DNA of 64,000 bases, taken from IMG/VR virus record IMGVR_UViG_2931133163_000005; one strand, given 5' to 3'. The notes below the pieces were generated by a model that searched no databases, had not been told where the DNA came from, and worked only from the letters and a program-made list of their open reading frames with translations. A program made the translations under genes and the position numbers. Shown here one piece after another: positions 16,646 through 61,985 of the stretch. The stretch is from a virus. Positions within the stretch are counted from its first letter, which is position 1, and every line of letters starts with the position of its first letter.

Positions 16646-16887
16646 GCCTTGGGCGCCTGGACGATCGCATCGATGGCGGCATGCGCTTCCCGAAAGAAGT
16701 CGCCGCCGATGGAGATGGCCTTCTCGGCATCGGACAGGCGTGCGTGCGCGCGCTCGAAGACTTTGGTGCGGGCGCCGGGAAGGATGTCGTCCAGCACGTC
16801 GAGGATCGCCCGTCTGACCATGTCCTCGGCAGTCAATCGCGCTGGCGATCCGATCGGGGCAAAGTCGTCGCTCATTCTCAGCTCCAT
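16642..16887 (-). CDS. Small counter-oriented hypothetical protein
   Basis: 81-aa helical ORF with GGAGGT RBS; its stop overlaps the stop of 16175..16645. Confidence 0.6.
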   Translation of the reverse strand: MELRMSDDFAPIGSPARLTAEDMVRRAILDVLDDILPGARTKVFERAHARLSDAEKAISIGGDFFREAHAAIDAIVQAPKA

Positions 16888-17128
16888 GGTGACTAGACAC
16901 CTCCATGGTAGCCGGCCGGGTGAGGCTGTCGAGCTTCGCGCTCATGGCCTCACCCGCGCTTGGCCGATCTCGTCGACCGGGAGCGCGGCATGATGCGCAA
17001 GCTCTCGGCCTCCGAGCTCGTCTCCCAGCACCTGCCGGGGCTCTCGACCAACGGCGCCGCCATCACGGTGACGTTCGCCGATCGGGCTGTGTCGCAGGCG
17101 TTCTTCGACGCACTGCTGATGGACCGCC

Positions 17129-17704
17129 ATGCCGGATACGTGCGGCGCGCCAACGAAACGGCCCCAAAGTCCGGGGAAGGGCATCCCGCACGGCGCGACG
17201 CGGCTGATCCGCTCGATCGACCTCAAGGTCGGGCCGGAGCCGAGCCGCGCCGTGCTCGAACTGGTGGACGGCGAGCAACGCGCGCATCGCTTCTTCGTCA
17301 CCGTCAGCGACCTGCAAGAGCTCGCGACGATCTCTCTCGTCGCGCGTCGACAGGGCGGCTTCGTTGCCCAGTTCAGCCCGTGCGAGGGGGAGTCCTCGAT
17401 CGTCTATCGTGGCCCGCAGAACCAGGGCCGGACCGACCACCCACGTGCCGAGCCCCTTGATCAGTTCTTCAAGGGCGGCGCGATCGAGCGGCGTCTCTTC
17501 GACGTCGAGAGCAGCGTCAGGATCCAGCGTCGGCGCGTCAACGCGCTGATGGCCACCTACGTCGAGCGGGCACGGCTGCCAAATGGCCGTGTCCCCGCCA
17601 GCTGCTGCCAGCGCTGCGGCGCGCCGATCGGCTACCTCGGCCGCGCCTTCGAGGCGGTCGGCGTGGCGCACCATGTCTGCCGTGCCGAGCGGGAGAAGGC
17701 GTAG
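17129..17704 (+). CDS. Hypothetical protein (start uncertain)
   Basis: C-terminal CCQRCG..HHVC; abuts the next ATG; overlapped by an upstream ORF starting at 16990. Confidence 0.5.
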   Translation: MPDTCGAPTKRPQSPGKGIPHGATRLIRSIDLKVGPEPSRAVLELVDGEQRAHRFFVTVSDLQELATISLVARRQGGFVAQFSPCEGESSIVYRGPQNQGRTDHPRAEPLDQFFKGGAIERRLFDVESSVRIQRRRVNALMATYVERARLPNGRVPASCCQRCGAPIGYLGRAFEAVGVAHHVCRAEREKA

Positions 17705-18181
17705 ATGGCGACCGATCCCGTCCTCACCGCCGCGATCGGCGAGCTGGCCGACGCCGTCCTCTACGCCGCCGCCGGCCTCGCGGCGGTGATCCTGGTCATG
17801 GGCGCGGTGATCACCGTCGTGGCCTCCGGCGTCCTGCATCAGCTCCAGGACCTGAACGACCACGTCGCCAAGGTTCGGGACGAGGGCGTCGACATCAACG
17901 TCGACGCCGGAGCGATCGGCCGCTCGCCCTTCGACGCCGAGCAGCTCGTCCGGCTCTACGGCTTCATCCTCGGCCTCTGGCACAAGCGCACCAAGCTGAA
18001 GGGCGAGCAGATCCCGTCCACCGAGCGGGTGACGCTCGACCTCGCCGAGGCCGTGGGCATCGAACTGCCGACCCGCCAGGACGTCGTCGGCATCCGGCCG
18101 AACGGCACCACCGTCCAGACGTCGCTGCTGCCCTACGGCGCGGAGCCGATCCCCGCCGCCCTCGATCCGGAGACCGCGTAG
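17705..18181 (+). CDS. Membrane-anchored hypothetical protein
   Basis: N-terminal TM LYAAAGLAAVILVMGAVITVVASGVL. Confidence 0.7.
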   Translation: MATDPVLTAAIGELADAVLYAAAGLAAVILVMGAVITVVASGVLHQLQDLNDHVAKVRDEGVDINVDAGAIGRSPFDAEQLVRLYGFILGLWHKRTKLKGEQIPSTERVTLDLAEAVGIELPTRQDVVGIRPNGTTVQTSLLPYGAEPIPAALDPETA

Positions 18182-18815
18182 ATGCGCTCGCGCCCTATCA
18201 GAACCCTCGCCGATCGCGTGGCCGCGCTGGAAGACCAGATCGACGGTCTGGCCTCGTCGACGGAGGATAGATCGGACGGCAGCGATTGCCGCGACGAAGA
18301 CATCCCCGAGCGCGATCCCGCCGATCAATCGGCGAAGATCTCGGCGAGGCCGGTCCGGGGTATGGGGGTGAGCGTGCGGTCTGATCTCACGAGCTTCGTC
18401 GGGCTTGAGATCATCGACTACGCGGGCAAGCCGCACCGCTTCCTCGTCGAGCCGGGTGATTTGGCGTTGCTCCTGCCGCCCCGGACGCAAGCGCTCGCGC
18501 CGTCCGCACCCACTGTGCCCGCCGTGGACCCGGACGAAGAGCTGACCCGGGCCCGAGCCCGGCTGACCAATGCCGAGGCCGAGCTGAAGGAGCGGGAGCT
18601 GCAGGCAAGGGCCCTCGTCCCGCCGCGCGAGGGTTACCTCCGCGCTGATAAGCTGACCGTCGGGTTTGACGAGAAGCGCCGGCGTCACGACGCTCGCCGT
18701 CACGGCCCTGGGCTTTCACTCCGAGCTCGCGATCGGCATCGACCCGAGCCGGGTCCCCTGGCTGATCGAGAAGCTGGCCTGGGCCATGGGCCAAGCCAAA
18801 TCGGACGAGGGCTGA
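18182..18815 (+). pseudogene. Hypothetical protein with an apparent +1 frameshift at GGGTTTG (~18665)
   Basis: The +1 frame LTRSAGVTTLAVTALGFHSELAIGIDP...DEG* stops at 18815, one base before the next ATG at 18817. Confidence 0.5.
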
Positions 18816-18816
18816 C

Positions 18817-19074
18817 ATGCCCTCCCGCCGCAGCATCCTCGCCTTCTTCGGGCTCGGCCCAGTCGCCGCTCCGGTCGCGATCGCCGCGATCTCCGCGCCT
18901 GCGCCGGAGATCTTCGGCGCCGACGTCACGGCGGACGGTGTCGCGGTCGTGCGGGCCGGGGCGATCCGCGCGCACGGCTCGTGGGAGGATGTCCTTCGCG
19001 AGCAGGACGCCTTCTTCGCGCGCTGCGACGCCTGCAAGCTCGTGCTGCCCTGTGACCCGGTCGGAGACGCCTGA
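18817..19074 (+). CDS. Hypothetical protein with twin-arginine-like N-terminus
   Basis: MPSRRSILAFFGLGPVAAPVAIAA. Confidence 0.6.
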   Translation: MPSRRSILAFFGLGPVAAPVAIAAISAPAPEIFGADVTADGVAVVRAGAIRAHGSWEDVLREQDAFFARCDACKLVLPCDPVGDA

Positions 19075-19149
19075 TGCGCTCTCGACAGCTGGTCCCCGCC
19101 CGCGCATCTGTGTCCGTCCCTCGCGCTCAAGCCCAAGGCGCCGCCTCCC

Positions 19150-19341
19150 GTGTTCCTGCGTATCGCCGCGCTCCTGTTGGCCGTGCTCCTGCTGCTGGGC
19201 GCGCTGCCGGCGTTTCGGCGAGCGGACAGGGCCAGGGCAGAGGGGCGACCGCCCCTGACGCGGCTCTACGAGTCCTCCCGGCCTTGGCTGGCGATCCTCG
19301 CCGCGGCCGCGATCGGCCTCTGGCTCCTGTCGAGCCGGTAG
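19150..19341 (+). CDS. Small two-TM protein
   Basis: Two hydrophobic segments. Confidence 0.55.
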   Translation: MFLRIAALLLAVLLLLGALPAFRRADRARAEGRPPLTRLYESSRPWLAILAAAAIGLWLLSSR

Positions 19342-19410
19342 CCACAAAGATCCGGCCGCTCCCGGCCGCCCGAGGTTCGACCGGTGCTTGGGCAAGCGCC
19401 GGCCGGGCAT

Positions 19411-19471
19411 GCCCCTTCGTGGGCGTTTCCTCCCTAGACTCCGCCGGGGCCTGCGGGCTCCGGCGCCTTTT
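19411..19471 (+). ncRNA. Candidate sRNA: hairpin, anti-SD seed (TTTCCTCCCT), terminator hairpin
   Basis: GCCC-cttcgt-GGGC, GTTTCCTCCCTAGACT, GCCGGGGCC-tgcg-GGCTCCGGC, then ccTTTT, in a 450-nt intergenic gap. Confidence 0.45.
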
Positions 19472-19794
19472 GGGAGACGACAGAGCTACGCGCGATGGCG
19501 CGGACAGAGCGGCCCGAGGCGACCAGGGCGACGGTGGGATGGCGGCGACGGCCCCATCGAGCCAGTCCGTTGAGAAGGTCGTGCCGGGGGCGACGGGTGA
19601 TGGCGACGGCCTGACCTCGGCCACCGGTCCCGGCGTCATGCCGGGCAGTGATTCGCCCGAACGGGCACCCGACAGCAGAAGGGCGGCCGCGTGATGCGAA
19701 CCGCCCCTGCTCACCTCCACGCGCCTTCCAGCCTGCCAGCCCTGGCGCGTGTTCTCGACCATCGTTGCGGCGACCTCCTCGCGAGGGCTGATCA

Positions 19795-20453: not shown

Positions 20454-21341
20454 ATGCGCGCCCCGCTCGCAGCCCTCGCCCTTGTCCTCGCCAGCAGTTC
20501 GGCCGCGCTCGCGGCCGAGCCCCCGACCTTCCGTCTGTGCACCGGCTCCGAATCCGGCAACTACTTCCGGGCCGGCCACATGCTGAAGAGCAAGGCCGGA
20601 GGCCTGAAGATCGAGGTCGTGCCGACGCAGGGTTCGCTCGACAACCTGGACAAGCTCTCGGCCGGGCAGTGCGACGGCGCCTTCGTCCAGTCGGACGCGC
20701 TCCTGGTCTACTCGTCGAAGAACGCGGCCGCGCTCTCGACGATCGAGCGCGCCGGCGTGCTCTACCAGGAGCAGGTGCACCTCATCTGCAACCGCGGCGC
20801 GGGGATCTCCCGCATCACGGACCTGGGCAAGGCCAACACCGTCGCGGTGGGCCCGGACGGCTCAGGCGGCCGCACCACCTGGGACGCCTTCGCGCTCGCC
20901 GACAAGAAGCGCTTCGGGCCGGTGAACGTCGACACCCGCTCGGGCGTGCGCGCCCTGTCCGCCGTGGCCGACGGCAGTCAGGTGCAGTGCGCGCTCTGGG
21001 TCGGGGCGCTCAACGCGTCCTTCATCAAGAACGATGCGCAGGCGCAGGGCGACCGCGTCGTGCTGGTCCGCTCCGACGATCAGGAGATGGTGGGAGCGGC
21101 GAAGGATGCCCGGGGCCAGCCGGTCTACAGCTACGGCTCGATACCGGCTGGCACGTACCCGCGGGTCCAGCCGGGCGGCCTCGTGTTCGGCACCAAGGCC
21201 CTCGACACGATCGCGGTCGACGCGCTGTTCGTCACGGCGATCCCGTGGGTGAACGCCAACGAGCGCGCCTACGACGGTCTGCTGCGCGCCTTCACGGCCG
21301 CCAAGCCGCAGATCCAGGCGATCGCGCAGCCGCAGGACTGA
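20454..21341 (+). CDS. TAXI-family TRAP solute-binding protein
   Basis: Signal peptide; LCTGSESGNYF, PTQGSLDNL, DGAFVQSDA, LYQEQVHL, VAVGPDGSGG. Confidence 0.88.
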   Translation: MRAPLAALALVLASSSAALAAEPPTFRLCTGSESGNYFRAGHMLKSKAGGLKIEVVPTQGSLDNLDKLSAGQCDGAFVQSDALLVYSSKNAAALSTIERAGVLYQEQVHLICNRGAGISRITDLGKANTVAVGPDGSGGRTTWDAFALADKKRFGPVNVDTRSGVRALSAVADGSQVQCALWVGALNASFIKNDAQAQGDRVVLVRSDDQEMVGAAKDARGQPVYSYGSIPAGTYPRVQPGGLVFGTKALDTIAVDALFVTAIPWVNANERAYDGLLRAFTAAKPQIQAIAQPQD

Positions 21342-21345
21342 CGCC

Positions 21346-21546
21346 GTGGCTGCCCGCTCTCCCTCCCTCTGGGTCCTGATCGCCGCCGCCATCGCGACGG
21401 CGATCATGGTGCACCCGAGCTTCGCGGCGCTGCTCACCCTGCCGATACAGCTCGGGTTGCTCGTCGTCCTGCGCTGGACGGCGCGGCGGGAGGGGCGGCT
21501 CGAGGAGCGGTCACTGCATCCTTCAACGAAGCGGGGATTCGTCTGA
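21346..21546 (+). CDS. Small two-TM protein
   Basis: LWVLIAAAIATAIMV / LLTLPIQLGLLVVL. Confidence 0.65.
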   Translation: MAARSPSLWVLIAAAIATAIMVHPSFAALLTLPIQLGLLVVLRWTARREGRLEERSLHPSTKRGFV

Positions 21547-21773
21547 TGGCTGCCCTCGATCGGAATAGGCTCACCGAGCTGACGCCCTCGCTGTTGAGCA
21601 TGTTCGGCAGCCGCGAGGCCGCGCTGGTCGAATACATCGGCCTCATGGGTGAGCTGAGCGGGCTCGCCGCCTCTGTCGATCTCGACGAAGGTGAGCGGCT
21701 GATCGCGCAGGGCTGCGAGCTCGTGCGGCAGGCGATCACACGCGCCGCCGCGCAGGGCTCTTCCGCGTCGTGA
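21546..21773 (+). CDS. Hypothetical protein
   Basis: 75-aa coupled ORF. Confidence 0.65.
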   Translation: MAALDRNRLTELTPSLLSMFGSREAALVEYIGLMGELSGLAASVDLDEGERLIAQGCELVRQAITRAAAQGSSAS

Positions 21774-23074
21774 CAACCTGGTGCGCCATACCGCGCGCCC
21801 TCCCCAGTCCAAGTCTGAGTTCGCAAGGGCGCGTGATGCGTGGTCCGAGGCCGTGGCTGTTGAGCGAGGTGGCGACCGCTGCCCGTCCGATTCTGGCCGT
21901 CGAGCGCGACGATGCGAGGGCGAGAGAATTGGGCGGAACCCTTGTCAAAATTAGACAAGGGTCGAGGGCAACGGGTGCAACGGCAGCGCGATGGGGTAAG
22001 AGCCATCAGTGGCTCGACTGGCTGCTGAAGGTCAGCGACGCAGCCGTTGCAGATCCCATCCGGCTCGGCGCGGCGCTGAACTTCCTCGATGCCGGCGGCG
22101 CTCCGAACGTCGCATGGTCCTGCATCTCGTCGGCGCGCGATTCAGAGGCTACGATCACGCTGCCGGCGCTGAAGCGTCAGGGCCGGCAGCTGCTCACGGA
22201 TGCTTGGAAGGGCCGTTGGAGCCTCGTCGACATCAACCTGGCGGCGCGCGCGCTCCTTGAGGCCCGGCTCGGCCACGCGCCTGTCATCGGCGGCACCTTC
22301 GACGCCGCTCAGCGGCGCGCGCTCGCCGACCTCGGCAAGCTCTGGGACGAGAGCGCCGACTTTCTGCTGCGCACCTTCGAGGTCTGCGAGGCCGCCGCGG
22401 TCGATCCGGACCGTTTCGGCTTCCTCGTCCCGGTCATGTGCAAGGCCGACAACCCGACAGCCGCCTGGAATCGCATGCGGGCGGTGGGCGACGAGCAACG
22501 CTGCCTGGAGCTGATCCCGTACGATGGATCCGTCCAGACTGCGGTGCTCGACCCGCCCTGGAAGGAAGTGAACGTGTCTGCGGCGGCCGGACACGCCTAC
22601 GCGAAGATGTCGCTCGACGAGATCCGCGCACTGCCGTTGCAGCGGTGGACCTGGGAGGATTCCCACCTCTACCTGTGGTTCATCAACGGCGTCTGGGGCG
22701 ACATCCCATCGATTGTTCAGGAGTGGGGCTTCGAGGTCAAAACAGTCCACACTTGGGTCAAAGAGGTCAGCGACCTCAGCCGCAACGATCCGAAGTTCAG
22801 CCTCGGACACGAGATGCGGAATACCACTGAGCATTTCGTCTTTGCTCGTCGTGGATCCAAGCTTCGCATGCCTCGGCGCTCCGCGACGTATTCAACGGCG
22901 ACCCATCACCGTTGGCCGCTGGGCGCCAACAGTGAAAAGCCGGACGCCTTCTACGATCTCGTGAGGCAGTGCTCCTACGGACCGTTCGGGGAAGCGTTTC
23001 AGCGCAAGCCGCGCGAGGACTTCATCAACCTCTACCGGCAGGCCGAGCCGCCTCGGCTGGAGGCCGCCGAATGA
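21770..23074 (+). CDS. MT-A70-family adenine methyltransferase with a large N-terminal domain
   Basis: VLDPPW, YAKMSLDEIRALP, LYLWF, WGFEVKT..TWVK, RNTTEHFVFARRG, SEKPDAFY. Confidence 0.9.
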   Translation: MTTWCAIPRALPSPSLSSQGRVMRGPRPWLLSEVATAARPILAVERDDARARELGGTLVKIRQGSRATGATAARWGKSHQWLDWLLKVSDAAVADPIRLGAALNFLDAGGAPNVAWSCISSARDSEATITLPALKRQGRQLLTDAWKGRWSLVDINLAARALLEARLGHAPVIGGTFDAAQRRALADLGKLWDESADFLLRTFEVCEAAAVDPDRFGFLVPVMCKADNPTAAWNRMRAVGDEQRCLELIPYDGSVQTAVLDPPWKEVNVSAAAGHAYAKMSLDEIRALPLQRWTWEDSHLYLWFINGVWGDIPSIVQEWGFEVKTVHTWVKEVSDLSRNDPKFSLGHEMRNTTEHFVFARRGSKLRMPRRSATYSTATHHRWPLGANSEKPDAFYDLVRQCSYGPFGEAFQRKPREDFINLYRQAEPPRLEAAE

Positions 23075-23235
23075 CGGCCGCCACGCTCCTCATGGCGATC
23101 GCCGCCCTCGAATCCGAAGCGCTGCATCGGCGCGCGCGACGCGGAGGCTTCGTCCCGCAGCTGGCGGCGCTCCATGCGTCCCGCTTTGCGGTGGCCGGCC
23201 TGCTGCTCGCCTTCATCTGGGCGGTCGGACGATGA
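23071..23235 (+). CDS. Small membrane protein
   Basis: ATGA overlaps; C-terminal hydrophobic segment. Confidence 0.5.
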   Translation: MTAATLLMAIAALESEALHRRARRGGFVPQLAALHASRFAVAGLLLAFIWAVGR

Positions 23236-23726
23236 GCGCGAATCCGAACCGCCGCGGGCTTCTGGGCCTGTTCGCCGCCGCGCCGATCGCGGCCGCCGCC
23301 AGCGTCCAGCCGGCCTCGGTGCTGGGCCGCGTCCGCATGATGGCGGCGGCCGGTCGCTTCGACGCGCTAGCGCCGGCGGCGCTGGGCCGGCTCGCCGATG
23401 GCACGCGAGGCGCAGGCCTGCCCGGGATTGGCGCCGCGCTCGAGCGCGCGCACCCGCTGGACGCGTCGACGCCGCCCGATCTCCTGGAGCTCGTCGCCGG
23501 CATCGGATCCGAGCCCGCGCGGATCGAGGCGCAGCTCACGGCCGAGGCCCGCGCGATCGCCGCGGTGGCGCTGGTCTATCCGCCCGAGATCGCGGCCTTC
23601 CGCTCGTTCGGAGCTCCGATGCGCCGCCGGCTCTACGCCGAGCTGCTGACGCGAGAATACGCGCGCTTGGCCGCCGCGAGCGAACCACCGCCGATGCCGG
23701 CGGCATCGTCCGGACCGGACGCCTAG
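23232..23726 (+). CDS. Hypothetical protein with twin-arginine-like N-terminus
   Basis: MSANPNRRGLLGLFAAAPIAAAA. Confidence 0.65.
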   Translation: MSANPNRRGLLGLFAAAPIAAAASVQPASVLGRVRMMAAAGRFDALAPAALGRLADGTRGAGLPGIGAALERAHPLDASTPPDLLELVAGIGSEPARIEAQLTAEARAIAAVALVYPPEIAAFRSFGAPMRRRLYAELLTREYARLAAASEPPPMPAASSGPDA

Positions 23727-26382: not shown

Positions 26383-26817
26383 ATGTCCAACACCCAATAC
26401 GACGTCATCGCCCTCACCGCCGGCATCGTGGCGGCCTACGTCGGCCGGCAGGCCGTGTCCGCGACCGATCTGCCCGGCCTGATGCGCACGGTTCGCGACG
26501 GCCTGGTCGCGCTCCAGGAGCCGGCGCCGGCGGCGGCGGCGGCCAAGCCCGAGGGCTTCCGCCTGACGGCCACCGAGATCCGCAAGTCGATGAAGCCCGA
26601 CGCGCTGATCAGCTTCATCGACGGCAAGCCGTACAAGACGCTGAAGCGGCACCTGACGTCCCACGGCCTGACGCCGGACAGCTACCGCACCCGCTTCGGC
26701 CTGCCTGGCGACTATCCCATGGTCGCAGCAGGCTACGCCGCGCAGCGCTCTGCGCTGGCGAAGGCGATCGGGCTGGGCGTGCCCGGCGCCCAGGCCGCAC
26801 GGCAGGCAGCGGAGTAG
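26383..26817 (+). CDS. mucR: MucR/Ros-family transcriptional silencer
   Basis: LTAGIVAAYV, IRKS..PDALISFIDGKPYKTLKRHLTSHGLTPDSYRTRFGLPGDYPMVAAGYAAQRSALAKAIGLG. Confidence 0.95.
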   Translation: MSNTQYDVIALTAGIVAAYVGRQAVSATDLPGLMRTVRDGLVALQEPAPAAAAAKPEGFRLTATEIRKSMKPDALISFIDGKPYKTLKRHLTSHGLTPDSYRTRFGLPGDYPMVAAGYAAQRSALAKAIGLGVPGAQAARQAAE

Positions 26818-26821
26818 CGCG

Positions 26822-28303
26822 GTGAGCAGGGATCGCAGGCCGCCGGGCTCCCGCAGCCCCTTCGAGAACATCGGTCGCAGCCTCGGAAAGCGCGAGCGCG
26901 AGATCTTCGACATCAAGTTCGACAGCGCGACGGTCACGAACGCCGTCGCGCCGCCCGACAGCAGCTGGCGGGACAAGACTGCCACGGAGGTGATGCGCGA
27001 TATGGAAAAGGTGATCCGGGAGATGACGGAGAAGGCGATCTTCGGTGACTTCACCGTAACGCTCAACGGCGAGGACATCGGCCGTTCGAAGGTCCGCTTC
27101 GTCACCCCCAACCTCGACGGCTCACGGCGCCACTCCGATCCGGAGCGTGAACGCCTTGAGGCGGAGGAACGCCGCCTGCGCGAACCGATTGCCAAGTACC
27201 TGCTGAAGGCCGCGCCAGGCGTCGCCTGGAATGATGTCATCGGCAACGACACGGCGCGCACCCACCTGGTGGAGGCGATCGAGCATCCGGTCCGCCACGC
27301 CGAGCTCTACCGCCACTACGGCAAAAAGCCGACGAAGGGCGTGCTGCTGTACGGGCCGCCCGGCTGCGGCAAGACGATGTTCGGCAAGGCGGCCGCCTCG
27401 ACGCTGGCAGCGCTGCACGGCGCGAAATCCGCGTCGTTCATGTCGATCAAGGCGCCCGAGCTGCAGAGCGGCTGGGTCGGCGAAACCGAGCGCACGATCC
27501 GGGACATCTTCGCCTATGCCCGGGCCTACAAGGCGCTGCACGCTCACCCGCTGGTCGTGTTCATCGACGAGGCCGACGCGATCCTGCCGAGCCGTGACGG
27601 CGGCGCCACGTGGTTTCAGGCGTCGAATGTCGCGACCTTCCTGACCGAGATGGATGGGATCGAGGACTCGGGCGCGCTCGTGATCCTGGCGACCAACCGC
27701 CCGGACGCCATCGACGCTGCGATCCTGCGCGACGGCCGCTGCGATCGGAAGATCCGGGTCGAGCGGCCGACCCGGGGCGCTGCCGGGATGATCCTGCAGC
27801 GCGCGCTCCTCAAGGTGCCGCTCGCGCCCGAGACGCTGACGGCTTTCGGCGAGCCGACCCTGGGCGAGATGAGCGGGAGCGGCGAGCCGTACATGCCGAC
27901 GCTGCAGGAGCATGCTCTCGGCGAGCTCGCGCACCACGTGGCCCAGGCCGTTTTTGCCTCCGAGCAGATCATCGTCCAACTCGCCACCGATCAGGGCCCG
28001 CGCTTCATCCGCCTGTCGGACATCGTCAACGGCGCCATGCTGATCGGCATCGTTGAGCAGGCCAAGGGCAACGCCTTCCGTCGGGATCTCACCGCCGGCG
28101 GGAAGCCGACGGGGCTGACGCGCCAAGACCTCGACCAGGCCGTGCTCGCCGTCGTCGCGCAGAACCGCGGGCTCAACCACACGGGCGTGCTGCAGGAGAT
28201 CGCGACGCGCGAGGGCTTCAGCGTGGCGAAGGTCATCCCCGAGGGCGCGGGGCCGCCCCGCTACACGGTGGATGCGGACGACAACGTCGTGCGGCTCCAG
28301 TGA
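26822..28303 (+). CDS. AAA+ ATPase, ARC/Mpa (proteasome-ATPase)-like
   Basis: GVLLYGPPGCGKT, WVGETERTIRDIF, VVFIDEAD, LTEMDG, ATNRPDAIDAAILRDGRCDRKIRVERP, DIVNGAMLIGIVEQAK. Confidence 0.9.
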   Translation: MSRDRRPPGSRSPFENIGRSLGKREREIFDIKFDSATVTNAVAPPDSSWRDKTATEVMRDMEKVIREMTEKAIFGDFTVTLNGEDIGRSKVRFVTPNLDGSRRHSDPERERLEAEERRLREPIAKYLLKAAPGVAWNDVIGNDTARTHLVEAIEHPVRHAELYRHYGKKPTKGVLLYGPPGCGKTMFGKAAASTLAALHGAKSASFMSIKAPELQSGWVGETERTIRDIFAYARAYKALHAHPLVVFIDEADAILPSRDGGATWFQASNVATFLTEMDGIEDSGALVILATNRPDAIDAAILRDGRCDRKIRVERPTRGAAGMILQRALLKVPLAPETLTAFGEPTLGEMSGSGEPYMPTLQEHALGELAHHVAQAVFASEQIIVQLATDQGPRFIRLSDIVNGAMLIGIVEQAKGNAFRRDLTAGGKPTGLTRQDLDQAVLAVVAQNRGLNHTGVLQEIATREGFSVAKVIPEGAGPPRYTVDADDNVVRLQ

Positions 28304-33562: not shown

Positions 33563-34417
33563 ATGCCCGAACACCATTCCGAGGCGGCCACAGCGCCGCC
33601 GCACCGTGCCGCGCCAGCTCCCGGCGCGCTCGCAGACCCCGCATCGAGCGATCGGTGCGGGGTCTTGCGCTTCTCCTTCCCGGAGACCGTCCAGATCGGA
33701 TCGGCGACGCTGATCCGCGCGGACAGCCTGTTCGACGTGCTCGCGGCCCTCGTGCCGGGCTCGATCGGCGGCGTGCTGACCGATCCGCCCTATTCGAGCG
33801 GCGGCCTCCACGCCGGCGACCGCATCCGCGCGCCGAGCCAGAAGTACCAGTCGAGCGAGTACCGGCACCTCCAGGCCGAGTTCGTCGGCGACAACCGCGA
33901 TCAGCGGTCGTTCCTGGCGTGGTCCGGTCTGTGGATGCACCGGGCCCGGCTCGGCATGCGCCCCGGCGCGATCCTCGGCGCGTTCACCGACTGGCGACAA
34001 CTGCCGGTGACCACGGACGCGTTGCAGACCGCCGGCCTCGTCTGGCGGGGCATCGTGCCCTGGGACAAGACCGAGGCGGTCCGGCCTCAGCTCGGGCGCT
34101 ACCGCAATCAGGCTGAGTTCCTGGTGTGGGGCACGAACGGCCACCGCGCTTCGGTCGGTCGGATCGCGCCCGGTGCCTATCGGGCCTCGGTCCCGCGGGC
34201 GAAGCTGCACATGGCGGCCAAGCCCGTGTCGCTGATGCGCGAGCTGCTCGCGATTATCGACGGCCCGGTGCTGGACCCGTTCATGGGCTCGTCGCCGATC
34301 GGCGAGGCCTGTGCCGAGCTCGGGCTTCCGTACCTCGGGGTCGAGGCCGACCCGCGCCACTTCGACACCGCCTGCCGGCGGCTCGAGGCGTTCGCCGAGC
34401 GCGGCGCCGCGGCCTGA
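33563..34417 (+). CDS. DNA N4-cytosine/N6-adenine methyltransferase (beta class)
   Basis: Catalytic LTDPPY before the SAM motif VLDPFMGS; HMAAKPVSLM. Confidence 0.92.
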   Translation: MPEHHSEAATAPPHRAAPAPGALADPASSDRCGVLRFSFPETVQIGSATLIRADSLFDVLAALVPGSIGGVLTDPPYSSGGLHAGDRIRAPSQKYQSSEYRHLQAEFVGDNRDQRSFLAWSGLWMHRARLGMRPGAILGAFTDWRQLPVTTDALQTAGLVWRGIVPWDKTEAVRPQLGRYRNQAEFLVWGTNGHRASVGRIAPGAYRASVPRAKLHMAAKPVSLMRELLAIIDGPVLDPFMGSSPIGEACAELGLPYLGVEADPRHFDTACRRLEAFAERGAAA

Positions 34418-34461
34418 TTTAACCGGGTTTTGATCCTGTCATCCGCAGGCCGAAACGGGCG

Positions 34462-34491
34462 ATTTCCAAGGTCTTAAAAGACCTTGGAAAT
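34462..34491. repeat. Perfect 30-bp palindrome, probable serine recombinase site
   Basis: ATTTCCAAGGTCTT-AA-AAGACCTTGGAAAT: 14-bp arms and a 2-bp centre, 35 nt upstream of the recombinase ATG. Confidence 0.8.
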
Positions 34492-34526
34492 TTCGGGTCG
34501 TTGAGGGCGAAAAGCGTAGTAAAAAC

Positions 34527-35393
34527 ATGAGCTTGCAGGCGGTTTCGGGCTCGCGCCGCGTGGCCCGTCTGCGGGCACGGAATAAAGTCCAGGCAGAGGC
34601 GAAGGCCACGGCCTCGACCCGCGCGGTGATCTACACCCGGGTCAGCACGGACGAGCAGGTCACGGGCCACGGGCTCGAGGCGCAAGAGCGCGCGGTCCGC
34701 GCGTTCGCCGAGAGCCAGAGCTACGAGGTCGTCGGGATCGTCTCCGATCCGGGCGTCTCCGGCGCGGTTCGCCCCGCGGATCGCCCGGGGTTCGCGACGA
34801 TCCTGCAGATGGCCGAGGCGCGCAGCTTCGAGATCCTGCTGGTCGCCAAGATCGACCGCCTGTCGCGCGATGTGCGGCACGCGCTGATGACGGTCTCCGA
34901 TCTGGCCGAGTTGCACGGCGTGGCCTTCCGGTCCGTGACCGAGGCCGTGATCGACACGTCCAACTCGATCGGGCGGATGTTCTTCACCTTCTTCGCCGGC
35001 ATGGCGGAGCAGGAGCGCTACCTGATCCGCGACCGCACCGCGGGCGGGCGCACCACCAAGGCTCGGAAGGGCGGCTTCGCCGGCGGCCAGGCGCCCTACG
35101 GCTATGAACGCGACCTGGAGGGCGGCCTCCGGATCGTCCCGGCCCAAGCGAAGGTCGTCCGCCGCATCTTCGAGGCCCGGAAGCGCAAGACGACGCTGAA
35201 GGCGATCGCCGAAGCGCTGAACGCCGACGGCATCCCGGCGCCGAAGGGCGGCCGCTGGTCCATCTCGACGGTCGCCTACGTGACCGACAACATGAAGTAC
35301 CGCGGCGCCATCGAGTACCTGTTCCGCTGGAACGGGCAGGAAACCCACGTGCTCGCCGACGGCGACCATGAAGCCATCGTGAAGTCGCCATGA
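34527..35393 (+). CDS. Serine recombinase (resolvase domain + recombinase domain)
   Basis: AVIYTRVSTDEQ, DPGVSG, RPGF, KIDRLSRD, MAEQER..IRDRTAGG, GGQAPYGY. Confidence 0.95.
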   Translation: MSLQAVSGSRRVARLRARNKVQAEAKATASTRAVIYTRVSTDEQVTGHGLEAQERAVRAFAESQSYEVVGIVSDPGVSGAVRPADRPGFATILQMAEARSFEILLVAKIDRLSRDVRHALMTVSDLAELHGVAFRSVTEAVIDTSNSIGRMFFTFFAGMAEQERYLIRDRTAGGRTTKARKGGFAGGQAPYGYERDLEGGLRIVPAQAKVVRRIFEARKRKTTLKAIAEALNADGIPAPKGGRWSISTVAYVTDNMKYRGAIEYLFRWNGQETHVLADGDHEAIVKSP

Positions 35394-35812
35394 CCTGTCC
35401 GAACTGCCCCGCCAGCCGCGCCGGTGCCTGCGGCCGCCAGGGCTGCCGCGAGCGCCTCGCGGAACTCCGCGTGGCGACCGTCGTCGGTCCCGCCCGGGAC
35501 GAGATGCTGCAGGCCGCCCGCGCAGAGCTTGGCCTCTTTCGCCTCTTGCTGCCCGAGGATGACTTCGCCCCACAGCTCGCCCGCCTCGACCTCCAAGAGG
35601 GCGACATCGTCACGGTGCGCACCCGCTCCAAGCTCGACGCCGACAAGGCCAAGCGATGGCAGGACGGCTTGGAGAAGCTGATCCGCGCGCAGGGCTGGCG
35701 CGACGTCGGGGTGCTCATCCTCGATGACTGCACCGACCTGACGGTCGACCGGCCGACCACGCGCCCCGCGCAGCAGCGCCGGGAGTTTCCGCAACCGATG
35801 CAGGGCTGCTGA
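35390..35812 (+). CDS. Hypothetical protein
   Basis: ATGA overlap; N-terminal CPNC..CG..GC. Confidence 0.6.
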   Translation: MTCPNCPASRAGACGRQGCRERLAELRVATVVGPARDEMLQAARAELGLFRLLLPEDDFAPQLARLDLQEGDIVTVRTRSKLDADKAKRWQDGLEKLIRAQGWRDVGVLILDDCTDLTVDRPTTRPAQQRREFPQPMQGC

Positions 35813-35814
35813 TC

Positions 35815-36033
35815 ATGCCGAAGGCAACGGACCAAGAGATCCTGGCAGCCTCGTACGCTCTCCGCGTGGCGCGCGCCGATCTCAATGTCGCGTTCGATGC
35901 CGAAATGGCGGCGGAGCGGGAACTCGTCGCCCGGCGTCAGGCCCGTGACGAGGCTCGGAGCGTCGCGGATCGGGCCCACCGCGAGTTCGATCGTCTGCTC
36001 GAGCTGCGCGATCATCCGTCCGAACAGGCATGA
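35815..36033 (+). CDS. Small helical protein
   Basis: 72-aa ORF. Confidence 0.6.
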   Translation: MPKATDQEILAASYALRVARADLNVAFDAEMAAERELVARRQARDEARSVADRAHREFDRLLELRDHPSEQA

Positions 36034-36110
36034 CATGGCCGCGCAGACGCTGACGATCCTCGATCCGGTCTCGGGCGAGCTGAAGACGATCACGGTCGGG
36101 CGCTGATCCC

Positions 36111-36840
36111 ATGCTGAAGCTCGACGCCAGCGAGTTCGGCCTCAAGGCCGAGGCCGTTGGCCGAGCTGGCCCGGCAGGTGCCGTTCGTCGCCGCGGTCGC
36201 ACTGACCAACGCGATGAAGGACGCACGGGAGGCCGAGCGCGAGACCATGCGGTCCGTGTTCGACCAGCCGTCGAGGTTCACGCTCAACAGCCTGATGGTC
36301 CGGCCGGCCACGAAGCAACGCCTCCAGGCAGAGCTCGGCTTCAAGGAAGGCAGCGGGTCGATCCCGGCCTGGAAGTTCCTCGGGCCTCAGGTCGCCGGCG
36401 GCACGCGCCGCCACAAGCGGTTCGAGGTCCTGCTGATCCGCAAGGGTCTGATGCTTGCGGGCGAGTTCGCGGTGCCCAGCACGCGCTGTCCGCGGGACGG
36501 CAACGGCAACGTGTCGGGCGCCTTCATCACCCGCATGCTCTCGGCGCTCGGGGCACAGTCGGACCGGTACCAGAACACCACGGCGCGCTCGAAGCGCCGC
36601 AACGTCGGGCGGAACGTCGAGTACATCGTCTTCCGCAACCACGGTAAGGCACCGGACGGGATCTACCTTCAGAAGGAGAAGTGGGCGGTGCCCATCTTCC
36701 TGTTCGTGAAGGGCGTCAGCTACTCCAAGCGCTTCCCCTACTACGAGAAGGCGGGCGCCGTGGTGCCGGCCGCGTACCGGAAGCACTTCCGGGCGGCCTG
36801 GGAGCGCTTCGTCGTCAACGACGTGCGCCGGAAGAGCTGA
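36111..36840 (+). CDS. Conserved pre-terminase phage protein with an apparent +1 frameshift near 36155
   Basis: MLKLDASEFGLKAEA joins in +1 to LAELARQVPFVAAVALT..VFDQPSRFTLNSL. Confidence 0.6.
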
Positions 36841-36951
36841 CCGGACGGCGGCCGCCAGCGGCCCGCGAAGGCCACGGGAGGGCCATCCGGGCGCCCGAGG
36901 GGCGGGCCGGAGGGCCGAGGGGTGCCTCACCCCCCTCCCCGGCCAAATCCA

Positions 36952-36996
36952 GGGTCCTTCCGGGAGGGGGGTGCCGGTGAGGGGAATTCGGACCCC
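36952..36996 (+). other. Putative cos region (cosQ + cosN)
   Basis: GGGTCCT at 36952-36958 equals lambda cosQ; GGGGTGCCG-[12 nt]-CGGACCCC follows; directly upstream of the nu1-like gene. Confidence 0.55.
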
Positions 36997-37041
36997 ATCG
37001 GTTCACCCTCTGAGAAATTTTGAAAACAGGGGTTGTTGTTG

Positions 37042-37620
37042 ATGTCCGGCGCCATCGACGGCCGGCTCGTAAACCGCGCCGACCTCGCCGGGATCTTCGG
37101 CGTCAGCGTCAACACGGTGACGAGCTGGATCGAGAAGGGCTGCCCCTACGTCGAGCGCGGCAGCAACGGCGTGGAGTGGCAGTTCGACACAGCCGCCGTG
37201 ATCGACTGGAAGGTTCAGCGCGCCGTCGAGAACGTGGCGATGAGCGCCAGCGACGACGGCACGAGGGACAGCAGCAAGGCTCGGCGCGAGGACGCGGATT
37301 GCCGCCGCGCGGTGGCCAATGCGATCGTCGCCGAGATCAGCGCCGACGAGGCGCTGAAGGCGGTGGTGTCCCGCCATGACGCGGTCGCCGACATGGCGAC
37401 CTTCTGCCAGGTCCTCCGGACCGGCCTCTCGAACATGGCCTCCAAGGTCGCCGGACGGGCGGCCACGATGACCAACGCCTCCGAGATCGAGGCGATGGCC
37501 AAGGCCGAGATGAACCGAGCCTTCACGGCCGCCCGCGAGGAAATCGCCCGGCGGTGGTTTGCAGGACGCGAACCCGACGATGACGCTGGCGGAGCGGATA
37601 GGAACCCACCGGCGGGGTGA
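37042..37620 (+). CDS. nu1: Terminase small subunit (Nu1-like)
   Basis: VNRADLAGIFGVSVNTVTSWIEKGCP..G.EWQFDTAAVIDW resembles the lambda gpNu1 wHTH. Confidence 0.92.
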   Translation: MSGAIDGRLVNRADLAGIFGVSVNTVTSWIEKGCPYVERGSNGVEWQFDTAAVIDWKVQRAVENVAMSASDDGTRDSSKARREDADCRRAVANAIVAEISADEALKAVVSRHDAVADMATFCQVLRTGLSNMASKVAGRAATMTNASEIEAMAKAEMNRAFTAAREEIARRWFAGREPDDDAGGADRNPPAG

Positions 37621-39640
37621 GTACCCGGCCGGTCGCGACGCGACGCGCACCGAGCTGGACCAGCTTTTCGACGAGGCCCTCGTCTTCAAGCCGCATATGT
37701 CCGGCTCGGAGTGGGCGGAGGAGCACGGCCGGATCCCGAAGAGCACGGGCTCCGAGAGCGGGCCGGTCACCCTCTACGGGTACCAGCGCGGCCTCATGGA
37801 CGCGATGTGCGATCCGACGCTGCCGCTGGTCACTGTCCTGAAGGCGGCCCGCGTCGGCTACACCCGACTCGCCACCCTGGCGATCGGCTACCACCTGCAT
37901 CAGGACCCGACGCTCTGCGCGGTCGCGCAGCCGGTCGAGGACGACGCGGAGGAGTTCGGCGCCACCGAGATCGCGCCGATGCTGCGCGAGACCCCGGTGC
38001 TCGCGAAGATGCTACGGCCCGTCCGCAAGGGCGAGAAGCAGGACTCGGCGACCTTCTACCAGCTGTCGAACGGCGCCCTCGTGCGCGTCGTCGGCGCGGC
38101 TTCGGACGACGCGTTCCGACGCTACTCGGCCCGGTTCCTATTCGCCGACGAGATCGACGGCGACGGCTGGACGCCCGGTGCCAAGACGCAGGGCGACAAG
38201 CTCAAGCTGTTCTGGACCCGCGGTGAGACCTTCTACAACCGAAAGCAGGTCCGAGGCTCGACCCCGCTCCTCGAGGAGACGAGCCGGGTCTGGAAGCTCT
38301 GGCTGGTCTCGGACCAGCGGCGCTACTTCGTGCCCTGCCCGCAATGCTCGGAGGCCGCCGGCGAGCTCGACGGCTGGCAGTATCTGGACTGGGGCGGAAA
38401 GGACACGCCGCACGGTCTGAAGTGGGATCTGAACGAGGACCGCTCGCTCAAGTCCGTCTGGTACCAAGGCACCTGCGGCTGCATCATCGATGAGGGCAGC
38501 AAGGCCTGGATGGACGCCCACGGCGAATGGCGGGCGACCGCGACGCCGAAGACGCCCGGGCACGCCGGCTTCCATCTCTGGACCGGCATGTCGCTCAACG
38601 TGAACGCCGCCTGGCCGGTGATCGTGCAGGAATGGCTGGAAGCCCAGGACGATCCCGCGAACCTCGTCCAGCCGTTCGTGAACCTGCGCCTCGGCCGGCC
38701 GTACCGGCAGACCTACGGCCAGGAGATCAAGCCGACGGCGTTCCTGGAGCGCTGCGAGGAATACGGCGCCGAGGTCCCGGACTTCGTCACCACCCTAACG
38801 CTGGGGGGCGACGTCCAGTCCGGCGCCAACGCCCGCATCGAGGGCGGCATCTGGGGCTGGGGCCCCGGCCTGGAGAGTGCCCTGATCGGCCATTTCGTCC
38901 TGATGGGCGATCCGGCCGAGCCCGGCGTCTGGCAGTCCCTCGACGCCCTGCTGAAGCGGACCTTCCGCAAGGCCGACGGCACCGAGCTGCGCGTGAGAGC
39001 GGCCGCCATCGACTCCGGCGGCCACCACACGGCTGAGACCTACGCCTTCTGCACCGAGCGCCGGAAGCGCAAGGTCTGGGCGATCAAGGGCAAGTCAGAG
39101 GCGCGGGGCGCTCGCACCAAGGTGTGGCCGCGGCTCGCGTCCACGAAGCTCGGCTCGTCCTGGTACATGATCGGCGGCAACGCCGCCCGCGACTTCGCCT
39201 ACGGCTCGCTGCCGCTGGTCGATCCCGGCCCGCGCTACGTCCACTTCCCGCTGGTGCCGGCGCGCGGCTCCCGGCCGATCGACGCCGAGTACTTCGAGCA
39301 GCTGACCCGCGAGAAGCTCGTGGTGCGACGGCAGGGCTTCACCGAGTGGGACAAGCCGAAGGTCCCGCGCGAGGCCGGCGTGTGCTTCGTCTACGCCTAC
39401 GTGGCGATGTGCGGGCTTCAGAGCCTGTCCCGCCGCTACGTGGCGCTGGGCAAGATGCCCGAACGCGAAGAGCCTGAGGAGCCGCTGGACGACGAGCCGG
39501 CGGCCGAGCCGGGTCAGGCCGTCGTCGTGGCGCCGCCGGCCGAACGACCGGCGCCCCGCCCCGTGGTGGTGCAGCGCGCCGAACCCAAGAAATCGTCGGC
39601 GCCCAAGCCGCCCGGGAAAAGGCCGTCGACATGGCTGTAG
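37559..39640 (+). CDS. Terminase large subunit (GpA family)
   Basis: LKAARVGYT, DEIDG, GSTP, RRYFVPCPQC, GGDVQ, AIDSGG, WAIKG. Confidence 0.97.
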   Translation: MQDANPTMTLAERIGTHRRGEYPAGRDATRTELDQLFDEALVFKPHMSGSEWAEEHGRIPKSTGSESGPVTLYGYQRGLMDAMCDPTLPLVTVLKAARVGYTRLATLAIGYHLHQDPTLCAVAQPVEDDAEEFGATEIAPMLRETPVLAKMLRPVRKGEKQDSATFYQLSNGALVRVVGAASDDAFRRYSARFLFADEIDGDGWTPGAKTQGDKLKLFWTRGETFYNRKQVRGSTPLLEETSRVWKLWLVSDQRRYFVPCPQCSEAAGELDGWQYLDWGGKDTPHGLKWDLNEDRSLKSVWYQGTCGCIIDEGSKAWMDAHGEWRATATPKTPGHAGFHLWTGMSLNVNAAWPVIVQEWLEAQDDPANLVQPFVNLRLGRPYRQTYGQEIKPTAFLERCEEYGAEVPDFVTTLTLGGDVQSGANARIEGGIWGWGPGLESALIGHFVLMGDPAEPGVWQSLDALLKRTFRKADGTELRVRAAAIDSGGHHTAETYAFCTERRKRKVWAIKGKSEARGARTKVWPRLASTKLGSSWYMIGGNAARDFAYGSLPLVDPGPRYVHFPLVPARGSRPIDAEYFEQLTREKLVVRRQGFTEWDKPKVPREAGVCFVYAYVAMCGLQSLSRRYVALGKMPEREEPEEPLDDEPAAEPGQAVVVAPPAERPAPRPVVVQRAEPKKSSAPKPPGKRPSTWL

Positions 39641-58446: not shown

Positions 58447-59130
58447 ATGTCGAGCCTCGCCCCGATCCAGCTGATCCAGCCGCAGCGCGTCGACTTCGAC
58501 ACGACGCAGGCGACCGACTGGCTCGATGGCTTGCCGCTGATCGGCTCGCCGAGCTTGGGCGGGGTGATCGCCGGGCCATCCAACGTTGGCCAAGCGAGCT
58601 TCACGGCCTCCGTCGCGCCCGGCACCGCGCTTGGCGTCCACAGGGTCACCGTGGCGGCCCTCGTGAATGGGCTGGTTGACCTGACCGTTTTGGATCCGTC
58701 GGGGACGATCACGGGCTTCGGGATCGCCGGCCTGCCCTTCTACGCCGGCGGCCTCACGATCAACCTGACCCAGCTCACCGGGCAAGCTGCGCTGGCGGTC
58801 GACGACACCTTCGCGGTGTCAGTTGTGCCCACGCCGGTCGACCTCACCGGCCTCGTGTTCGACCTCGATGCGCGCCAGTCGCTTGGGGCGGCGACCATCG
58901 CGCTCCAGGCCACCAGCGGCGGCGCGAACCCGAGCATCGCCAACGGTGGCCCGCTCGGCGTGATCGCCATGGCGGTCGCCCGCGCGACCATGGCCCGGCT
59001 GCCGGTCAAGCCCGAGGGCTACCCCTACGGCATCACCGCCACCGACCCGGCGACGGGCCTCCGGGTCCCGACCTTCTACGGCCTCATCCACCACACCGCC
59101 GTCCCCGCACAGATCGGACAGGGAGCCTGA
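58447..59130 (+). CDS. Beta-rich virion protein, possible spike adaptor
   Basis: PVDLTGLVFDLDARQS..GVIAMAV..YPYGI pattern with an inserted Ig-like module. Confidence 0.6.
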   Translation: MSSLAPIQLIQPQRVDFDTTQATDWLDGLPLIGSPSLGGVIAGPSNVGQASFTASVAPGTALGVHRVTVAALVNGLVDLTVLDPSGTITGFGIAGLPFYAGGLTINLTQLTGQAALAVDDTFAVSVVPTPVDLTGLVFDLDARQSLGAATIALQATSGGANPSIANGGPLGVIAMAVARATMARLPVKPEGYPYGITATDPATGLRVPTFYGLIHHTAVPAQIGQGA

Positions 59131-59134
59131 GAGC

Positions 59135-61237: not shown

Positions 61238-61336
61238 CCTGACGCCCACGGCGCCCCGCGGATCCCACCCGCGGGGCGCCGACCTGATGCCGCGCGGCTG
61301 ATCGCCCGGCCCCAACCCGACACCTTGGATCCCGCC

Positions 61337-61741
61337 ATGCTCCTGCAGCGCCTCGCGCTACGGGCCGCAGTCGCTTGCGCGCTGCTGTTCGCGCCTGCCC
61401 ACGCCCGAGCCTGGGAAGGCATTGCCTCGACCTACGGCCGCGAGATCTTCCGCATCAACCCGAAGGGGCTGACCGCCAACGGGGAGCGGTTCAAGCCGAT
61501 GGGGCTCACGGCGGCGATGTGGGACGTCCCGTTCAATACGCGCGTTCGCGTGACGAACCTCGCCAACGGCTGCAGCGTGATCGCCCGGATCAACGACCGA
61601 GGGCCACACAGGCGGCTGCGCCGCGCGATCGACATGTCCACCGGCGCGGCCCGCGCGCTGTGCTTCGACGGCCTCGCTCGCGTCCGGATTGAGATCCTGG
61701 ACCGGGCCGGGTCGGGACGCCGCTTGGCGGACGCGCGCTGA
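61337..61741 (+). CDS. rlpA: RlpA-family (DPBB) lytic transglycosylase with signal peptide
   Basis: GIASTYG, TANGERF..GLTAA..PFNTRVRVTNLANGCSVIARINDRGP..RAIDMSTGAARAL. Confidence 0.92.
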   Translation: MLLQRLALRAAVACALLFAPAHARAWEGIASTYGREIFRINPKGLTANGERFKPMGLTAAMWDVPFNTRVRVTNLANGCSVIARINDRGPHRRLRRAIDMSTGAARALCFDGLARVRIEILDRAGSGRRLADAR

Positions 61742-61974
61742 TGCGGGCCCGGATCCTGGCGGCGTTGCTGGCCGTCCTTGTGTCCGGCGCGCCGGCAGCG
61801 GCCACCGCCCGGCCGCGCATCCCGCACCTGCCGCCCCGGCCGAGCGCGGCGAGCCTTCTGGCCGCGGCGCCGATCGCGCCGAACGGCCTGCTCATCCACG
61901 ACGCCGGGCGCCTGCGCACCCTTGAGCTCGACGAGATCGCGCCGCTGCGCCTGCGCCTCTCCATCCCCTTCTGA
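61741..61974 (+). CDS. Small exported-type protein
   Basis: Signal-like N-terminus; TGATG overlap. Confidence 0.55.
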   Translation: MRARILAALLAVLVSGAPAAATARPRIPHLPPRPSAASLLAAAPIAPNGLLIHDAGRLRTLELDEIAPLRLRLSIPF

Positions 61975-61985
61975 GGACCTGACCC

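Follow-up and report, generated by a model that had tools for sequence, protein, structure and literature searches.

Phage annotations commonly place a second 'integrase' or 'resolvase' beside the terminase genes, and the presence of such enzymes at this position is unexplained. The question is raised by a stretch of 64,000 nucleotides of viral DNA (IMG/VR record IMGVR_UViG_2931133163_000005; in the following, the window means this whole stretch), in which the gene for a serine recombinase lies between a perfect palindrome and the genes for packaging. On which DNA does this enzyme act, and what does the phage gain from it?

Prophage setting of the recombinase gene

The window is a prophage of Methylobacterium: over the 20.9 kb that were compared, it matches the chromosome JBEPNW010000002.1 at 100%, and close homologs are named from this genus. 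The prophage has a lambda-type head and Mu-like baseplate genes, and the features around the recombinase gene are given in Table 1. At the prophage end, 0.1-1.3 kb outside the left border of the window, there is a tyrosine integrase, and tyrosine-integrase-like genes are also found near the ends of related proviruses (two above the Pfam cut-off, the rest weak), so that the serine recombinase is not the integrase of this prophage. A 15-bp direct repeat at both prophage ends (L338:14458 and L339:14700 regions; E 0.07) is a candidate att core, which would give the prophage a length of about 68.6 kb and place it directly before the flgB flagellar operon, with an ISL3 element inside its right end. 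A second prophage, the sibling, resides in the same chromosome about 240 kb away and in inverted orientation, and carries an identical recombinase and a site that differs by one base. Where the window prophage has an AAA-family ATPase (26822-28303, 493 aa; late-early region, with a MucR/Ros regulator at 26383-26817), the sibling has an RtcB-like ligase.

Table 1. Coordinates of features at the recombinase and packaging locus, as positions in the window
Feature	Position	Strand	Basis
N6/N4 DNA methyltransferase, accessory neighbour	33563..34417	+	PF01555
Probable crossover site, 14-2-14 (family geometry 13-2-13)	34462..34491		Sequence, uniqueness, covariation across the family
Tract identical to sibling prophage	34467..37011		Sequence comparison; sole difference a 1-base indel at 36168
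Central dinucleotide AA, asymmetric	34476..34477	+	Centre variation across the family (putative 2-bp overhang, which would set exchange orientation)
A-tract and IHF-consensus-like element	34510..34535	+	Overlaps start region; 2 mismatches in the window copy
Serine recombinase, 288 aa, intact	34527..35393	+	Pfam, invariant residues, AlphaFold model
cosQ-like heptamer	36952..36958	+	Same motif precedes the annotated cohesive end of Serratia phage BZS1
Putative cosN, 12-base cohesive end	36983..36994	+	Spacing from the motif in BZS1
Nu1-like small terminase	37042..37620	+	PF07471
Lambda gpA-like large terminase	37580..39640	+	PF05876, PF20454

The heptamer is called cosQ-like after the cosQ of lambda. 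When isolated phages were searched at the DNA level for the cos region, chance matches were all that came back. At 36168 the window has an extra G that is absent from the loci L002, L005, L006 and L007 and from four sequencing runs; it shifts the frame of a 242-aa gene (36111-36840; PHROG 'minor tail protein') and is probably an assembly error in the window copy.

A serine recombinase that ends after its recombinase domain

Pfam analysis of the recombinase revealed two domains only, Resolvase (PF00239, residues 33-183, E 9e-37) and Recombinase (PF07508, residues 205-286, E 2e-14), with no match to a zinc-ribbon family and likewise no coiled coil. The initial annotation had judged the enzyme too short for a large serine integrase and had noted a recombinase domain, and both statements hold. 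In an AlphaFold model (pLDDT 87), a basic N-terminal helix (residues 5-28) precedes catalytic domain, helix E and recombinase domain. The model fits best to the N-terminal half of the SPbeta integrase (9dxh, TM 0.73), and the chain stops where large serine integrases go on to zinc ribbon and coiled coil. The catalytic motifs comprise Ser40 and DRLSR at residues 110-114, and R38, S40, D110, R111 and R114 are invariant across the family.

Within the length range searched, 895 proteins match the recombinase, the best 120 being mostly 275-300 aa long, and the family set used here consists of 98 distinct proteins at ≥44% identity. Both catalytic motifs are kept in all 98, 80 of them end at most 9 residues past the last motif of the recombinase domain, and a zinc-ribbon motif after this domain was found in none. 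The short form is a stable architecture and not a truncation. Two candidates for a partner protein were rejected: an overlapping 140-aa ORF that might have encoded a split-off zinc ribbon has no family match and is not conserved downstream of the gene in relatives, and upstream genes of 80-95 aa vary by lineage and sit 0.4-3.3 kb away. In serine integrases the recombinase domain contacts 13 bp and the central dinucleotide decides on productive alignment (PMC3783163), and both properties fit an enzyme that has the recombinase domain alone. Deletion of the coiled coil leaves an integrase promiscuous but poor at intermolecular recombination (PMC5499577); the enzyme of the window appears to be a recombinase without directionality module and lacks the coiled coil, the part from which integrases derive their direction.

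The palindrome as probable crossover site

The 14-2-14 palindrome described in the initial annotation is real and present as a single copy with centre AA: two perfect arms of 14 bp (34462-34475 and 34478-34491) form the longest perfect inverted repeat within the 64 kb. Allowing up to three mismatches, one match was obtained in the window and none in 100 shuffles, and further half-site matches in the window occur at chance level only. As neither the window nor the record of the sibling prophage contains a second copy, tail-fibre inversion, already considered unlikely in the initial annotation, was rejected. The palindrome ends 35 bp before the start of the recombinase gene; it had been assigned to a promoter region, of which the upstream position stands, but a consensus scan found no sigma-70 promoter nearby, so that the term is positional only.

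Comparison across the family revealed that such sites accompany most of these genes. In an unbiased upstream scan, an inverted repeat with an even axis and at least 11 of 13 pairs was found in 48 of 109 regions; odd axes gave 2 such repeats and the interior of the gene gave 0. A profile search located a 13-2-13 site at a clade-typical distance upstream of the gene in 88 of the 98 members. The two arms covary (10.05 of 13 pairs, versus 7.18 ± 0.19 when arms are swapped between sites), and the sequence of the site tracks the protein tree. At the centre, 11 of the 12 asymmetric dinucleotides were seen but none of the 4 self-complementary ones, and with at least 21 changes of centre class on the protein tree this absence has a probability of about 2e-4 to 2e-3, as is expected for a crossover core. 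The family-wide covariation and the exclusively asymmetric centres lend good support to the earlier reading of the palindrome, which is very probably the crossover site that the adjoining recombinase binds and cuts.

A scan of 146 Methylobacterium genomes for related sites, as had been recommended, found this site type beside its own gene only. Among family members no second copy was present in 734 kb of flanks, and in two Acidobacteria genomes one weak extra match was seen. An extra half-site was detected at -64 from the centre in one clade (L097, L103, L168, L170, L331, L333 and L334), where it is a possible accessory site, and at +66 in two members; most members have no accessory recombinase half-site. 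In several clades the centre is AA in some and TT in other close relatives (L273/L274, L169/L177, L193/L275), a flip that may reflect either antiparallel recombination with repair or template switching inside the palindrome. The IHF-like element is found with at most one mismatch in 35 of 58 members, where 2.5 would be expected; its distances to the site cluster one helical turn apart, and it overlaps the ribosome-binding region. It is possibly an accessory bend, or else a promoter or RBS element.

Linkage to packaging genes across the family

Among the genomes of 146 Methylobacterium species, 36 carry the recombinase family. Flanking sequence was sufficient for 54 members, and in 40 of these, terminase or portal genes follow downstream, on the same strand and at most 6 kb away. 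The 40 comprise 25 P22-like, 12 lambda-like and 3 members of a third type. The initial annotation had placed the locus next to cos; the link to packaging is real, but with 25 of the 40 being P22-like it is not specific to cos. Two distant short homologs (35-38% identity) also lie just upstream of terL and portal genes, and no clear 13-2-13 site was found at these two. Other members stem from sludge and sediment metagenomes and from Acidobacteria genomes, in elements that could not be classified. Isolated phages and plasmids yielded no homolog above 40% identity, and identity to phage integrases reaches up to 40%. Short proteins of the same domain make-up form several clusters in public data, and our literature search, which covered few subscription journals, found no description of the family. 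Serine recombinases of this short make-up also occur in genomes of Thermoplasmata/Methanomassiliicoccales (L016, L019, L025, L028, L031, L032, L046, L048, L051, L052, L075 and L086), with 33-35% identity and without obvious 13-2-13 site. Contig Ga0134101_1001270 harbors two family members about 12 kb apart with differing sites (L219 and L224), and upstream of the recombinase in L224, L201 and L212, genes for an excisionase-like HTH protein and a RelE-like protein are oriented divergently to it.

Among phages with a lambda-type head, the recombinase gene is absent from more distant relatives (terminase about 70% identical), and in eight further relatives the slot is occupied by alleles of 48-100% identity, most of them with a recognisable site of their own. 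The distribution of these sequences indicates that enzyme and site move as an exchangeable pair.

In acetic-acid-bacteria prophages the same slot holds a recombinase of different chemistry. Acetobacter phage phiAP1 encodes there a 291-aa XerC/D-like tyrosine recombinase (PhiAP1_290) with an 11-6-11 palindrome about 60 bp upstream of its gene, and this gene is followed by a homolog of the gene at 36111-36840 in the window and by a cos-like sequence. The true integrase of phiAP1 is separate and located at the genome start; the tests that we found in the report on this phage (PMC8566455) concern only this att-linked integrase. The same tyrosine layout, with covarying arms, was found in most of 28 related loci. 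XerC/D-like genes of this kind before the terminase (L347:1240-2279, L350-L378) are annotated merely as 'integrase'. The occurrence of two unrelated chemistries in one slot points to a selected function between phage genome copies.

Hybrid tracts that begin at the site

Comparison of the two prophages of the chromosome revealed a tract of identity that starts 9 bp left of the site centre and ends 17 bp right of the putative cosN. Upstream of this tract the similarity of the two prophages is about 92%, and in the terminase genes it is mostly 86-95%. Informative sites match in 263 of 263 cases inside the tract, and outside it 25 of 117 and 47 of 89 follow a third phage. The same tract lies under both upstream types in samples of other projects (L005, L006, L007). 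If two phage circles fuse at the site and the product is packaged from cos to cos, exactly such a site-to-cos hybrid is expected. The chance of such a tract, in a rough estimate with assumed window sizes, amounts to 1e-4 for uniform ends, 2e-3 if the left end is tied to block borders and 3e-2 if the left end is granted, and the tract represents one event.

Three other long (near-)identical stretches are shared by the two prophages (16844-19503, 20571-23611 and 59014-62071); they reflect ongoing exchange between the two, for which no site-specific explanation is needed. The last one covers a gene for a 700-aa tail fibre-like protein. The left end of the site-to-cos tract is only 68 bp away from a homology break. 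In L007 the tract continues to 37080-37172, an extension that is most simply later because the sibling alleles there follow the third phage. In genome G526, two P22-like prophages are identical for 872 bp from the left edge of the site, and in L279 the parent changes within the interval from -5 to +4 of the site. Close relatives often cease to be homologous at the left edge of the site, although these pairs are not independent. General triplet scans showed no excess of mosaic breakpoints at the site centre, linkage inside the recombinase gene was too scrambled for breakpoint testing, and contigs of four DNA sequencing runs contained no joint at the site, which is uninformative either way. RNA sequencing runs covered small parts of the region only. 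In genome G409, two copies with the same centre lie 2.5 Mb from each other in direct orientation, an arrangement that suggests a silent enzyme in the lysogen.

Proposed function and alternatives

Terminases of the lambda and P22 types need multimeric DNA. Our preferred reading, to which we give about an even chance of being right, is that enzyme and site form a non-directional Cre/lox-like system that fuses phage circles into packageable multimers. Its sole substrate would be the palindrome before its own gene, and two such sites would be converted into two such sites. A dimer would bind each site via the recombinase domains, two dimers would synapse, cuts would flank the 2-bp centre, and after strand exchange the asymmetric centre would allow head-to-tail joining only. 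With one site per genome, the reaction would take place between genome copies, either sister copies of a replicating circle or two circles. During lytic growth monomer and multimer circles would interconvert, and a terminase that uses only multimers would turn this into a net supply of head-to-tail DNA. Since the terminases need multimers, even a balanced reaction would be pulled toward fusion. A co-resident phage with the same site would give rise, as a by-product, to a hybrid in which the site-to-cos segment is swapped. Expression is presumably late, and the benefit would presumably lie in the fusion direction.

In favour of fusion, the half-site is just as long as the 13 bp that the recombinase domain contacts (PMC3783163). 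A search of four relatives for ParA gave nothing, and the sibling prophage and another relative with lambda-type head showed no gene of the RecT, Erf, Rad52 or Sak4 type; against fusion, two other carriers do have an Erf or Sak4-type gene, and the more distant relatives with lambda-type head lack the recombinase gene. As an integrase without coiled coil is weak between molecules (PMC5499577), another aid to synapsis would be needed, for which the extra N-terminal helix is a candidate. The hybrid shows that fusion can happen, not that selection maintains it. In the wider form that temperate, integrating phages from several lineages employ a dedicated terminase-side recombinase, serine or Xer-like tyrosine, for fusing monomer circles into multimers, the proposal is more tentative, and we hold it at somewhat less than even confidence.

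The main rival is dimer resolution in the manner of Cre and Xer, by which dimer circles would be converted to monomers, aiding lysogenisation or a carrier state, and in which the IHF-like element and the N-terminal helix would impose a topological filter. A site linked to the gene is the hallmark of single-recombinase Xer systems, for which dimer resolution has been shown (PMC5357621), such enzymes of plasmid prophages are assumed to act on dimers in this way (PMC8026635), the tyrosine recombinase in the same slot resembles XerC/D, and loss of the coiled coil favours the intramolecular reaction in an integrase (PMC5499577). The IHF-like element, conserved and at a fixed helical phase to the site, could serve such a resolution filter instead of fusion. 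However, the carriers are integrating prophages with their own integrase and no ParA found, no close homolog occurs on plasmids, and most members lack an accessory half-site. Also, the gene sits next to the packaging genes, and conversion to monomers there would take away the DNA form that phages like lambda and P22 package, and the site-to-cos hybrid requires an intermolecular event. Resolution is therefore rather unlikely in our view; of the multimer resolution suggested in the initial annotation, action between copies of the phage circle is retained as the best reading, but the evidence leans toward fusion.

Resolvases commonly repress their own promoter, and the palindrome might be an operator only, for autoregulation or control of late genes, with the identical tract resulting from homologous recombination. 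The distance of 35 bp to the start, the existence of other identical tracts and the lack of a breakpoint hotspot would agree with this, but the avoidance of self-complementary centres and the conservation of all catalytic residues are not explained by an operator, which also leaves unaccounted for that a tyrosine recombinase with tyrosine-type 11-6-11 geometry occupies the same slot. We consider this improbable. A system kept for swaps of modules between co-resident or co-infecting phages, as a joint between early and late regions and without a role in single infection, is slightly less probable still. The hybrid tracts that begin at the site in two genomes, the switch in L279 and the stop of homology at the left edge of the site speak for it; near-identical phages, however, carry alleles of 46-64% identity with different sites, and swaps between these are blocked because exchange needs the same specificity and centre. 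Moreover, there is no general hotspot, the pairs with homology stop are not independent, and gene borders are the usual joints of mosaics.

In phage P1, loxP is located near pac. Circularisation of terminally redundant virion DNA after injection, as by Cre of P1, would suit the 25 P22-like carriers, which are presumably headful packagers, but 12 carriers, including the window, have a lambda-type terminase and a cos-like site and need no recombinase for this purpose, and the site upstream of terS would lie outside the redundancy if packaging follows the direction of terminase transcription, which makes this function very improbable. We think just as little of a second integration system using a host site, a possibility raised in the initial annotation: the closest characterised relatives are integrases, and some non-alphaproteobacterial members have an excisionase-like HTH gene divergently upstream, but all prophages examined have an intact site in a central position, a tyrosine integrase is present at the prophage end, a directionality domain is lacking, and neither the 734 kb of flanks nor the 146 genomes hold a copy away from the gene. 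The least credible alternative is a small mobile element made of methyltransferase and recombinase, an earlier suggestion that is refuted: the two genes adjoin each other in the window, L379 and L099, but each occurs without the other (L002 and L004 have the identical recombinase and no methyltransferase, and L379 combines a methyltransferase and a downstream gene of 97% identity with a recombinase of only 46% identity and another site), and there are no flanking hybrid sites. A telomere resolvase was rejected, as the enzyme family is wrong and the prophage is integrated.

Comparison with known recombinases

Enzyme and site are now paired for about 90 family members, and a multimer-fusing job is not described for such enzymes. 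If the fusion reading is true, it adds an undescribed site-specific route to the multimeric DNA needed by terminases and accounts for a fixed joint at which co-resident phages exchange segments. In mechanistic terms the enzyme represents a natural serine integrase minus its directionality module. Enzymes of 280 aa with divergent 28-bp sites and changeable 2-bp cores could serve as small orthogonal recombinases; again if the fusion reading is true, nature would offer a collection of dozens of such compact Cre-like serine enzymes, orthogonal to one another and with 28-bp sites already known.

With the large serine integrases (SPbeta SprA, A118/LI, Bxb1, TP901-1) the enzyme shares catalytic domain, helix E and recombinase domain, and the site shares the asymmetric 2-bp core and the 13-bp inner half-site. 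In contrast to these, the enzyme has neither zinc ribbon nor coiled coil, one symmetric site of 28-30 bp takes the place of the attP/attB pair, and the gene lies in mid-prophage beside the terminase and is not the integrase of the phage. Integration by attP x attB leaves attL and attR at the ends of an element, but here the single site is intact in mid-prophage and a tyrosine integrase lies at the end. Small resolvases and invertases (Tn3/gamma-delta, Sin, Gin, Hin, Pin) resemble it in the catalytic domain and in an upstream crossover site of about 28 bp, but they measure only about 190 aa as compared to 288 aa. The enriched IHF-like match may be a counterpart of the architectural-protein site that Sin-type enzymes have beside the crossover site, although it overlaps the ribosome-binding region. 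Further, here the recombinase domain replaces the C-terminal HTH, most members lack accessory subsites (res), and there is no inverted pair of sites. IS607-family transposases have an N-terminal winged HTH for DNA binding and no recombinase domain; they differ in that the N terminus of the window enzyme is a single helix (score 43 versus a cut-off of 110).

PhiAP1_290 and its relatives occupy the same slot before cos and terminase, with an upstream palindrome of their own and a separate integrase at the genome end, but belong to the tyrosine family and use an 11-6-11 site. Like P1 Cre/loxP and the Xer modules (XerS/difSL, XerH/difH), the system consists of one enzyme and a gene-adjacent site with inverted arms and asymmetric core and, judging from genomic traces, would act between identical sites; unlike them, it uses serine chemistry, is found in integrating prophages without partition genes, and has fusion as its proposed net direction. 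The enzyme is thus a serine recombinase that is neither a large integrase nor a small resolvase/invertase and that appears to work in a Cre/lox-like manner.
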